Positions 3,001-6,000 of a stretch of DNA of 10,423 nucleotides are shown piece by piece. The position numbers are program-made. The stretch lies in the IMG/VR virus record IMGVR_UViG_2534681835_000018, one strand, 5' to 3'. Origin of the DNA: a virus. Its lineage: Duplodnaviria > Heunggongvirae > Uroviricota > Caudoviricetes. Within the stretch, counting starts at the first letter, position 1; each line of letters starts with the position of its first letter.

Positions 3001-6000
3001 CACCGTACACCTGATGATTTTCATCGTATACGCGCTGTATCTCTCTCTTCAGCCAGTCATCGCGCTGAGCACGGGCACTGCGTTTATCAGGATGATGTCG
3101 CTGTTGCTGACAGTGGTAATACGTTGACGGGGCAATATGCAGTTCACTGCATACCGGTCCGACCCCGTACTGCTCACGCAGCTTATCCAGCAGCGGCATT
3201 ATTTTTTCCAGAGGCGGTCGAACTCCGCCTTCGCAAAATAAGCGGAAGCCTGGCGAAGGATATCGTTACTGCGGCGCAGTTCACGATTTTCACGTTCCAG
3301 CTCTTTCAGACGCTGACGTTCAGCGCTGGTGAGCCCACCATCACCGCCCCCGGTATCCCGCTCATGCTGGCGAACCCAGACACGCAGAGTCTCCGGCGTA
3401 CAGCCAATCTTTGGGGCAATGGAACAAATTGCCGCCCACTGTGAGTCATATTCATCCTGACTTTCCAGAACCATACGAATCGCCCGCTGACGGACTTCGG
3501 GGGAAAAACGAGTATTTTTAGTCATCCTGTTTACCTCTTTCTCAGGGAGTTTAGTCTCCAGGATTTCCGGGGCGGTTCAAAAAGATGAAAAAGAAAGATC
3601 GCGATGCTGATTTGCGCTGGATTCATGGCGTTATAGTTCAGGCAGCGTGGTTTGTAAAAGCATCACTGGAGCAGAATGCACTATCGGGCAACTATCCGGT
3701 AACTCCGGATAGTTGGATAAGCTGTAGTGAGCGAATGCCGGATACCAAAACAGCCGTTCTTGTTGCCAGGGATTTTGGCAGGAAAGGTGACTGGCGAATG
3801 AAATGGGCGACTTACATCCCGGGGCATCCTGACGCTAATGATGGGTGGATAATACCTGGTGCGTCGTGGATACCATCACACTGGATGCCTCTACCAGAAC
3901 CGCCGCAGGAGGTGCGCCAATGAACTGGCCTGAAGCATTTGCAATTACAGGCGTTGCTATGGCTATCGCTTTTTTAGTATATGTTATTTGTCGGTGAGGG
4001 TAAAAACGTTCGCCGGGATTAACACCAAAGGAGGGAATATGTCGGATGATATATCACTGGCAATGGAAGGTGCGCTGGCTGTTGTTGCTGTTGTGGGCGT
4101 TTACTGCCTGGTTGTGTTTTTGATGGATCGACTAGGGAACTGAATTCATTACGATATGGGAATTCCCATATCGGGTAAAAACGGTTTGCGGTAAAGCGAG
4201 AGTTAAGTAGAATTGCTGCGGGTGCTTGAGGCTGTCTGCCTCGGGCATGCCACCGTAAGGCAGACAGAGAAAAGCCCCAGTTAACATTACGCGTCCTGCA
4301 AGACGCTTAACATTAATCTGAGGCCCAATCTATGCTTCACAAACGTAGGTTAGCCTCTTACGTGCCGAAAGGCAAGGAGAAGCAGGCTATGAAGCAGCAA
4401 AAGGCGATGTTAATCGCCCTGATCGTCATCTGTTTAACCGTCATAGTGACGGCACTGGTAACGAGGAAAGACCTCTGCGAGGTACGAGTCCGAACCGGCC
4501 AGACGGAGGTCGCTGTCTTCACAGCTTACGAACCTGAGGAGTAAGAGACCCGGCGGGGGAGAAATCCCTCGCCACCTCTGATGAATCAGGCATCCTCAAC
4601 GCACCCGCACTTAACCCGCTTCGGCGGGTTTTGTTTTTCCTGGCATTCTGGTTTACAATTCGCACGCCAGCCTGAACAACTGGCACCTGCTGCGCCAGCA
4701 GAGACAACCGATGGCGCACGATACCAAATTATACAATTCTGATGATTCTGCCGTCTTTGCCAGCAGGCGCGGACGGTGTTTTCACGCATTCAAATCTGAC
4801 TGGTACCAGCATCCCCCATGCACTGAAGAACAGGCCGAATGGCTCATTCAGTGTTACCGCAGGCGCGGATGCGAGGTTAAAAAAGCCCTTAGCCTCGACT
4901 ACCGTCACTGGATAATCTCCGTCAGGCTCCCTTACTCCGAACGGCCACCGCGTCCGTCCCGCACATTCTAGCAACGGATCTGGAGGTAATGTGCGGGTAT
5001 TACTTCGACCTGTTCTGGTACCGGAACTCGGTCTGGTTATCGTTAAGCCAGGCCGTGAATCCATGCGGGTATTTCATGGCGGCAGGGTGCTGGTGGAGTC
5101 TGAACCGAAAAGCATGCGTAATCTGCCGTCCGGGGTCGTTCCTGCCGTTCGCCAGCCGCTGGCGGAAGATAAATCATTACTGCCATTTTTCAGCAATGAG
5201 CGTGTGATTCGTGCTGCTGGTGGCGCTGGTGCACTGTCTGACTGGTTATTACGTCACGTTAAATCCTGCCAGTGGCCTCATGGTGATTATCATCACAGCG
5301 AAACTGTCATACATCGTTACGGTACCGGCGCGATGGTGTTGTGCTGGCACTGCGACAACCAGCTGCGCGACCAGACATCCGAATCACTTGAGCAACTTGC
5401 TCAACAAAACCTGTCAGCATGGATGATTGACGTCATCCGCCACGCAATGAATGGCATACAGGAACGGGAATTATCGCTGGCTGAATTATCCTGGTGGGCA
5501 GTCTGCAATCAGGTGGTGGACGCATTACCTGAGGCAGTATCGCGTCGTTCTCTGGGATTACCGGCGGAAAAAATCCGCTCCGTATACCGTGAAAGCGACA
5601 TCATACCGGGAGAACAGACCGCCACCAGCATACTGAAGCAGCGCACAAAAAATATTGCGCCACCGCCTCACACCCACCAGCAACAGAACCCACCACAGGA
5701 AAAGACGGTGGTCAGCATTGCCGTTGATCCGGAGTCTCCGGAATCCTTCATGAAACGACCTAAACGTCGCCGCTGGGTAAATGAGAAATACACACGCTGG
5801 GTAAAGACACAGCCGTGTGCGTGTTGTGGTAAGCCAGCGGACGATCCTCATCATCTGATTGGTCATGGTCAGGGTGGAATGGGAACAAAATCCCACGATA
5901 TTTTCACGCTACCGCTGTGTCGGGAGCATCACAACGAGCTTCATGCGGATCCGCTGGCGTTCGAAGAAAAGCATGGTTCCCAGGTTGATTTAATTTTTCG

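Follow-up and report, generated by a model that had tools for sequence, protein, structure and literature searches.

A perfect 22-bp palindrome upstream of hok in a lambdoid Escherichia coli prophage is very likely an orphan copy of a dyad selected within KilA-N-type BstA genes

What is the role of a perfect 22-bp palindrome situated just upstream of a hok locus in a lambdoid prophage? This question arises from a 10,423-nt stretch of viral DNA (Caudoviricetes; IMG/VR record IMGVR_UViG_2534681835_000018), referred to as the window throughout, which shares 99.9% identity with a lambdoid prophage of Escherichia coli O111:H8 strain 8E. The exact 22-mer CGATATGGGAATTCCCATATCG at positions 4152-4173 represents a perfect dyad with 11-nt arms and zero spacer, and its symmetry stops there, since the outer bases A 4151 and G 4174 are unpaired. 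It is the longest zero-spacer palindrome of the window, the runner-up having 7-nt arms, and 11-nt arms were attained in only 0.3% of 2000 first-order Markov simulations of the window. As a single strand, the 22-mer forms a hairpin (stem of 9 bp, loop of 4 nt), with folding energies of -8.6 kcal/mol for DNA (z -3.7) and -14.5 kcal/mol for RNA (z -4.5). No T-run lies on either side of it, the bases 3' of the dyad being GGTAAAAACGG, and a terminator scan gave no call at 4152-4173, ruling out an intrinsic terminator. A known RNA family is ruled out as well, as Rfam gave no match for it, whether at the gathering threshold or with E values of up to 10. An earlier note on this DNA, made from the sequence alone, had described the palindrome, considered a chance origin unlikely in 10 kb and dismissed a terminator for want of an adjacent T-run, and all of this is confirmed here. 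We conclude with high confidence that the palindrome is an orphan, i.e., gene-less, copy of a dyad at home in KilA-N-type genes of the BstA family.

The identical 22-mer is found inside the gene of the 257-aa protein WP_000200358.1 of E. coli strain 1428, where it encodes ..SRDMGIPIS... This gene occupies the slot 5' of a hok locus and is on the opposite strand. The protein contains a Pfam KilA-N domain at residues 14-112, matches PHROG 6287 ("BstA abortive infection system, replication inhibitor") over its full length (E 2.7e-89) and the BstA model of PADLOC over residues 119-238 (E 3e-21), and shares 32% identity with the C-terminal half of BstA-BTP1 (E 3e-16). Carrier proteins of this type thus combine the KilA-N(-like) N-terminal domain and the BstA C-terminal domain that characterize the BstA family, their N-terminal domain being a canonical KilA-N domain, unlike the remote "KilA-N-like" domain of BstA-BTP1. 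The carrier family is large, comprising 2650 clusters at E <= 1e-10, and members with 50-60% identity occur in many phyla. In an AlphaFold2 (AF2) model of the carrier (mean predicted local distance difference test score 91.3), the segment encoded by the dyad comprises the end of helix 47-60, the turn G61-P63, and the short helix 64-67, immediately preceding the beta-hairpin wing. The nearest folds to this model are Mbp1 and the PCG2-DNA complex, with Mbp1 lacking exactly the 11 residues encoded by the dyad region. This predicted placement is compatible with, and not proof of, a role in DNA recognition.

Several observations on the breadth of this family can be added. The precomputed Pfam entry PF26567 spans the C-terminal half of all 120 proteins among the matches listed (the family of L002:2433-3206). 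BstA-like genes of the DIGIPIS type that are nearly identical and contain a perfect dyad occur repeatedly in many IMG/VR contigs of 200-400 kb and a guanine-cytosine (GC) content of ~0.30 (L310-L356), and contigs of giant-virus metagenome-assembled genomes (GVMAG; L363, L365) encode ETGIPVS-type KilA-N proteins with the dyad, some of them fused into proteins of 450-630 aa. A KilA-N-type bstA gene of 100% identity is located in E. coli O111:H8 strain 8B (NZ_CP077473.1, 2300682-2301455), which shares its serotype and apparently its study series with strain 8E, the best match of the window, and would be a natural host in which to study gene and orphans together.

Is the DNA conserved only because the KilA-N peptide is conserved? 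This was evaluated with a homologue set of 80 genes from many phyla, covering genome GC contents of 0.30-0.66. The homologous 22 nt form a perfect palindrome in 32 of the 80 homologues and retain at least 9 of 11 pairs in 64, while in 58,417 other segments of the same genes, examined as background, at least 9 of 11 pairs occur in 0.024% and 11 of 11 in none. In 12 of the 80 genome homologues, the DMGIPIS-type dyad is identical to the 22-mer of the window, and positions 4152-4173 conform to the dyad form CG-N5-GGAATTCC-N5-CG. A scan over 288 encodings of DMGIPI(S) mostly returned the same palindromic loci, and all 33 KilA-N matches (33/33) obtained in it use palindromic codons with at most one to two mismatched pairs. 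Relative codon entropy is reduced at the dyad codons (D59 0.45, G61 0.55, I62 0.62, P63 0.60, S65 0.21) compared with all other conserved columns (0.76-1.0, nearly all >=0.85), and the centre GGAATTCC is held against host codon bias, with GGA in 76% and ATT in 78%.

In parallel, the two arms change in step. The variant-specific dyads comprise CGATATGGGAATTCCCATATCG for DMGIPIS, CGAAACGGGAATTCCCGTTTCG for ETGIPVS, and CGATATCGGAATTCCGATATCG for DIGIPIS, and further compensated dyads were found for VMGIPIT (CGTTATGGGAATTCCCATAACG), DAGIPAS (CGATGCCGGAATTCCGGCATCG), DVGIPTS (CGATGTCGGAATTCCGACATCG), and EAGIPAS (CGAAGCGGGGATCCCCGCTTCG). These matched arm changes include amino-acid replacements, as illustrated by the pairs formed by residue 2 and residue 6 (M-I 29, T-V 24, V-T 4, A-A 2), a coupling that recurs in an independent protein set (120 among the matches listed). 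The covariation score, computed on 78 distinct sequences aligned without gaps, amounted to 0.294, as opposed to 0.122 +/- 0.009 for shuffles (reached by 0 of 500) and at most 0.088 for slid registers. Covarying pairs are 15-26 (UA 52, CG 24) and 16-25 (GC 50, CG 22), and one extra outer pair is retained in ~70% of the sequences, extending the dyad to 24 bp. The sequences are related, so that these counts do not represent independent events, yet several distinct compensated states exist. Since codons are frozen only at the dyad and arm changes are compensatory, selection acts on the nucleic acid itself; the conserved KilA-N peptide is ruled out as the cause of the DNA conservation, given that synonymous sites are saturated elsewhere and frozen here while the arms covary. 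At the level of sequence, this comparison demonstrates that KilA-N-type BstA genes contain, in the dyad, a nucleic-acid element under selection whose arms are variant-specific. Irrespective of its function, the dyad clearly exemplifies a protein domain in which coupled amino-acid replacements are dictated by the structure of the encoding nucleic acid. Very probably, it is an element that a dimeric DNA-binding protein could recognize. The strongly held centre favours recognition of the duplex over that of a loop, while the central loop pair, the least well retained of the dyad (AU 44, GU 10, unpaired 15), points the other way.

The copy in the window has no such gene around it. No BstA or KilA-N homologue was found in the window by tblastn, no bstA-like gene is annotated in the stretch of the same prophage examined, from the upstream genes of the window to the integrase, and the minus-strand reading, PDMGIPIS, runs into two stops. 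Because no KilA-N/BstA open reading frame (ORF) runs in frame through the dyad, the copy is classified as an orphan, and its likely partner is a KilA-N/BstA protein that is not encoded in the window.

The earlier note had proposed to look for the same palindrome elsewhere, and it is indeed present in very diverse phage contexts as well as in KilA-N genes. A scan of viral contigs with the pattern GATATGGGNNNNCCCATATC revealed at least 120 loci; among the matches listed, the flanking C...G and a RATY centre, both outside the pattern, are nearly universal. The contexts of the 22-mer among these matches comprise the hok slot, a position directly after an ORF6N anti-repressor gene, high-GC contigs, and the inside of KilA-N genes. 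In other lambdoid phages of enterobacteria, the dyad belongs to a unit CCATACAAG-dyad-ACAGCCAGGGCCTC that adjoins an intrinsic terminator. A conserved punctuation unit of ~63 bp composed of dyad and intrinsic terminator, CTACCATACAAG-dyad-ACAGCCAGGGCCTCTTCGGAGGCCTTTTT, was observed in L005, L028, L054, L088, and ~60 further loci, where it comes after different genes within the nin-like region of lambdoid phages (GC ~0.53). Orphans make up the majority of the copies and are mainly intergenic, open frames of 100 aa or more containing 18% of them vs 79% of random positions, and a bstA-like gene is found near an orphan in 1 of 87 viral loci (up to about 7 kb on either side). Orphan copies of the DIGIPIS-type and ETGIPVS-type dyads exist as well. 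Bare copies are widespread in E. coli genomes and in common lytic coliphages: of 5426 complete E. coli genomes, 972 (18%) contain the dyad, with a median of 2 and up to 7 copies per positive genome, and 137 contain the gene.

Many lytic Dhillonviruses among the GenBank phages contain the 22-mer. HK578 and TheodorHerzl possess a single 32-bp unit (GCAACCAATGCGCGCAAAATTTAATCTTTCAG) without any dyad; the arrangement is unit-dyad-unit in KarlBarth and unit-dyad-unit-dyad-unit, i.e., a tandem double dose, in PNS1. These phages provide direct evidence of dyad insertion. The Dhillonvirus dyad (L125 2472-2560, L130, L128, L129) is located downstream of the helicase-primase gene, and four GTCCCGC(TTT) iteron-like repeats adjoin it, which may indicate an origin or a regulatory region.

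What could such bare copies be good for? BstA blocks phage DNA replication and thereby aborts infection, while the prophage that carries it escapes by means of an element termed aba (PMC8585504, Owen et al. 2021). In the Salmonella prophage BTP1, aba is DNA-based and overlaps the start of bstA, spanning 63 bp from -29 to +34, with CCCGCC direct repeats at its ends; when present on high-copy DNA it is active in trans, its transfer to P22 confers protection on that phage, and it is cognate to each BstA variant (PMC8585504). It was mapped for BTP1 alone and not for the other two variants tested, and homologues that match BstA in its C-terminal region only were noted as well (PMC8585504). That paper does not mention a palindrome or an inverted repeat (PMC8585504), we found no description of one in BstA or KilA-N defence genes in the literature searched, and no comparable palindrome was found in the bstA gene of BTP1. 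Like aba, the gene-embedded dyads lie within a bstA locus, whereas the copy in the window does not, and the dyad lacks the architecture of aba, i.e., 63 bp with terminal CCCGCC repeats spanning the start codon. The identity of the dyad with the published aba element is ruled out by these differences in sequence, place, and symmetry; the functional analogy is retained.

Building on this analogy, the dyad would be a DNA site recognized by the KilA-N domain of its cognate BstA and would act like aba, in that replicating phage or prophage DNA carrying the site titrates or switches off BstA. The carrier of the site could thereby replicate despite a resident BstA-encoding prophage, and an orphan copy would be an immunity pass or decoy acquired by a phage without bstA, with the copy in the window perhaps under weak or episodic selection only. 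The tandem doubling in PNS1, the orphans in phages, and the variant-specific arms are hints that would fit an aba-like, copy-number-dependent suppression. For the full mechanism, drawn from sequence comparison and from the aba analogy, we stop just short of calling it probable and propose it tentatively. A wider reading, which we regard as doubtful in its entirety, combines these elements into a self-encoded cognate site: the 22 nt encoding the helix-turn-short-helix next to the wing would be the very DNA bound by the same KilA-N domain, so that any change of an N5 arm alters protein and site together and yields matched pairs of BstA and immunity, while phages without bstA (lytic Dhillonviruses, this lambdoid prophage) acquire the dyad alone and use it as a counter-defence consisting of DNA only. 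The silencing of BstA by aba and the origin of cognate specificity are stated open questions (PMC8585504), for which the dyad offers a concrete and cheaply testable object. If the dyad is the immunity element, its orphans would constitute a DNA-only anti-defence device and would help to explain which phages escape BstA.

A number of findings weigh against this proposal. Uncompensated decay of orphans was seen in each of the three contexts that were sampled without bias. A form with a 1-nt deletion, CG-TATGGG... (CGTATGGG...), was detected in the hok context at 27 IMG/VR loci by a flank-anchored scan (gap 20-26) that takes in shortened and variant forms only and therefore shows decay, not frequencies; two E. 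coli strains have this form as well. The terminator-linked context (CCATACAAG) has the decayed forms CGATATGGGGATTCACATATCG and CGAAATGGG..., and two mutated forms occur among six Dhillonvirus-type loci, the flank-anchored IMG/VR scan for Dhillonvirus units having returned 4 loci, too few to gauge conservation. Because these changes are uncompensated, the constraint on the orphan copies appears to be weak or episodic. Moreover, orphans are not confined to phages without bstA, as prophage contig L006 has both the gene and a window-type orphan: a KilA-N-type bstA gene at 4231-4989 with one central dyad mismatch and, ~5.8 kb apart, an orphan at 10624-10645 (34-aa ORF and perfect dyad). Covariation alone cannot tell a dimer-binding site from a hairpin or cruciform. 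Anti-phage activity is known only for BstA-BTP1, BstA-Ec, and BstA-Kp, all of which have the BTP1-type N-terminal domain (PMC8585504), and the sole mapped aba, that of BTP1, differs from the dyad in its 63 bp, its CCCGCC direct repeats, and its lack of a dyad. We infer the link between the dyad and BstA activity from sequence comparison and analogy. Finally, the DMGIPIS-type dyad is common to many diverged proteins, which is awkward for a strict cognate specificity.

The location of the palindrome, which ends 12 nt upstream of the inferred hok -35 and is centred ~58 bp 5' of the inferred start of the hok mRNA, would also suit an operator or activator site of the hok promoter, and the earlier note had tied the palindrome to this promoter. 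Comparison of hok loci leaves this explanation with hardly any credibility. In palindrome-free phages (933W, VT2-Sakai, and many others), homology to the window begins at 4170-4176, right past the palindrome (4173-4176 for 933W, VT2-Sakai, L133, and many chromosomal loci), and in E. coli genomes many matches to a 96-bp probe begin at 4173. In 933W and E. coli 2012C-4221, the 25-aa ORF preceding the hok module is immediately followed by G(G)ATAAAAACGGTTTGCGG and the same promoter, the palindrome being absent. The hok region was matched in 4960 of the 5426 complete E. coli genomes and the dyad is present in only 972; the promoter is intact and conserved in loci without the palindrome, while the same 22-mer occurs without hok in >20 contexts. 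Even where the upstream sequence differs, as in PPompW/Stx2a phages, the 22-mer is unchanged (22/22) between flanks of 82.6% identity. The palindrome is thus no conserved component of hok/sok, and a hok operator is ruled out comparatively. From the alternative of an operator or a recombination site that the note had raised, a dyad recognizable by a dimeric protein and located at a mosaic junction is what stands, and the part concerning hok falls, its own refuting observation, absence from homologous loci (933W, VT2-Sakai, 2012C-4221), having been made. The small ORF at 8042-8239 (65 aa), which the note had named as a possible regulator, was dropped, as it yields a weak, sub-threshold TrmB-type match alone and no evidence of a link to the dyad. 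For annotation, this implies that the palindrome upstream of hokD in prophages of Shiga toxin-producing E. coli should not be recorded as a hok regulatory site.

The remaining alternatives concern the dyad itself. A serious rival, if an unlikely one, is that orphans are inert relics or by-products: the dyad would function only inside bstA-like genes, and the copy in the window would be the leftover of a degraded gene or the scar of hairpin-driven template switching or illegitimate recombination. A complete bstA-like gene fills the slot upstream of hok in L002, clear pseudogene relics exist in L026 and L364, and uncompensated changes accumulate in orphans. In the window, besides the stops that follow DMGIPIS on the minus strand, the left flank (10-14 nt) resembles in 9 of 14 nt the antisense of the bstA codons 3' of the dyad (L002 GAATTAACTC, encoding ..ELIQ..), so that GAATTCATTA may be a remnant of a bstA-like gene, a resemblance that is only suggestive of descent from a gene fragment. 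Relics would, however, hardly account for the many contexts that share the exact 22 nt alone without any bstA flank, including the lytic Dhillonviruses, in which the dyad has been inserted between copies of a local sequence and, in PNS1, occurs twice in tandem, nor for >20 independent contexts together with orphans of two other dyad variants; by chance, the exact 22-mer is estimated to occur ~0.006 times in a collection of this size, and the PPompW copy is fully identical despite its diverged flanks. The insertions in turn suit a mobile or recombinogenic mini-palindrome, at which a nuclease, a recombinase, or hairpin-stalled replication breaks and joins DNA so that the dyad spreads and marks mosaic junctions. 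It lies exactly at the homology breakpoints of the hok module, target-like duplications flank it (11 bp in the window, 32 bp in Dhillonviruses), and one right flank is joined to differing left flanks (L026 vs L060). We consider this very unlikely, as no associated transposase or recombinase was seen, the duplications are unequal in length, and the strong purifying and compensatory selection in a defence gene across phyla would be left unexplained. An RNA hairpin acting as 3'-end stabilizer or attenuator of the 34-aa ORF transcript, and in bstA genes as regulator of translation or mRNA decay, would make use of the stable stem described above, would fit the usual position of orphans 8-20 nt past a stop codon, and would agree with the poor retention of the central pair. 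This explanation seems highly improbable to us, considering the missing U-tract and Rfam match, a central GGAATTCC that is held against host codon bias across GC 0.30-0.66 and would be needless for a loop, and the BstA immunity element, which acts as DNA and not as RNA (PMC8585504).

The local setting of the palindrome is summarized in Table 1. Compared with the palindrome-free layout, the window has ~175 extra bases that comprise the 34-aa ORF, GAATTCATTA, and the palindrome at the right end, with an exact direct repeat of 11 bp, GGGTAAAAACG, on both sides (copies at 3998 and 4173); 933W and L133 have a single repeat copy, G(G)ATAAAAACGG, immediately 3' of the 25-aa ORF. The stop codon of the 34-aa ORF lies 8 nt upstream of the palindrome, and the ORF is found in some palindrome-bearing loci and missing from PPompW; no Pfam or PHROG family was found for it. 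Two tandem tiny hydrophobic ORFs (25 aa and 34 aa), neither with a family assignment, thus precede hok, and the 25-aa ORF is kept upstream of hok in 933W and further loci. The hok promoter is a reading by analogy with other hok loci, with a score of 8/12 that is under the threshold of the consensus scan. Downstream of hokD/sok, the gene order is DUF968, RusA, Q, and three tRNAs.

Table 1. Features surrounding the palindrome (positions in the window)
Feature	Position	Strand	Remark
IS3-family element	2312-3525	minus	
DUF551 remnant (C-terminal part)	3585-3923		
25-aa ORF (MNWPEAF...)	3920..3997	+	neighbour marking the insertion point; directly precedes the hok module in palindrome-free loci
First direct-repeat copy GGGTAAAAACG	3998..4008	+	100% match; left boundary of the ~175-bp segment
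34-aa hydrophobic ORF (MSDDISLAMEGALAVVAVVGVYCLVVFLMDRLGN)	4039..4143	+	hypothetical protein WP_001278454.1 in RefSeq; within the inserted segment
Left flank GAATTCATTA	4142..4151	.	also found beside the palindrome in PPompW phages, L003, and L060 (orphan contexts)
Palindrome CGATATGGGAATTCCCATATCG	4152..4173	.	minus strand reads ..P-D-M-G-I-P-I-S-stop-stop
Second direct-repeat copy GGGTAAAAACG	4173..4183	+	shares the last palindrome base; homology to palindrome-free hok loci begins here
hok promoter, inferred	4186..4213	+	TTGCGG 4186-4191, 16-nt spacer, TAGAAT 4208-4213
Rfam sok/hok leader match	4220-4394		
hokD coding sequence	4389-4544		

Further features of the window were recorded at a greater distance. 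The insertion sequence (IS) of the IS3 family, inserted in the early region, carries a programmed-frameshift ALIL pseudoknot (3128-3244) and truncates the DUF551 gene and a hypothetical gene upstream. A full-length match to the small RNA STnc100 (138 bits) is located at 9445-9635, just past the three tRNA genes (9119-9365) downstream of Q. This layout of tRNAs and STnc100 is that of Shiga toxin (Stx)-type phages; the window itself is without stx genes.

Among known systems, aba of BTP1 is the closest counterpart as a short DNA element embedded in a gene of the BstA family, the dyad being likewise embedded, variant-specific, and found alone in other phages. To the separable, portable, and copy-number-dependent nature of aba, the dyad offers a parallel in its tandem doubling in one phage (PNS1). 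It differs from aba as a perfect palindrome of 22 bp (often 24 bp) at codons 58-65 of a canonical KilA-N domain, which is not shared in sequence with BstA-BTP1. Solitary decoys derived from defence loci exist in phages, e.g., the CRISPR-repeat-like RNA anti-CRISPRs, which resemble the orphans as defence-locus nucleic acid occurring alone in phage genomes; they are RNA-based and CRISPR-specific, whereas the dyad is DNA from a protein-coding region with a putative function. Roi of phage HK022 is reportedly a DNA-binding protein of the nin region with a site within its own gene, and it would share with the present case a phage protein of the Ant/KilA world, a binding site in its own coding sequence, and the P-Q interval of a lambdoid phage. 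No copy of the dyad was found in the nin region of HK022 even with 3 mismatches, and a Roi-type site, unrelated in sequence, was set aside and serves as an analogy only.

Repetitive extragenic palindromes (REP), bacterial interspersed mosaic elements (BIME), and miniature inverted-repeat transposable elements (MITE) are similar to the orphans as short intergenic palindromes located just past stop codons, with multiple copies in a genome (the dyad reaching 7 in E. coli) and with flanking duplications. The dyad is distinguished from them by being perfect, of coding origin, present in 1-2 copies per phage, and variant-specific in step with a protein, and it showed no conserved flanking tetranucleotide or common flank across contexts and no partner of the RAYT (REP-associated tyrosine transposase) or IS200 type. 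Finally, the APSES/KilA-N proteins (Mbp1; PCG2 on MluI cell-cycle box (MCB) DNA, PDB 4ux5) have the same fold as the N-terminal domain of the carrier and bind specific duplex DNA via helix and beta-hairpin wing. Their known site, with an ACGCGT core, is unrelated to the dyad, and Mbp1 does without the 11 residues of the dyad region.

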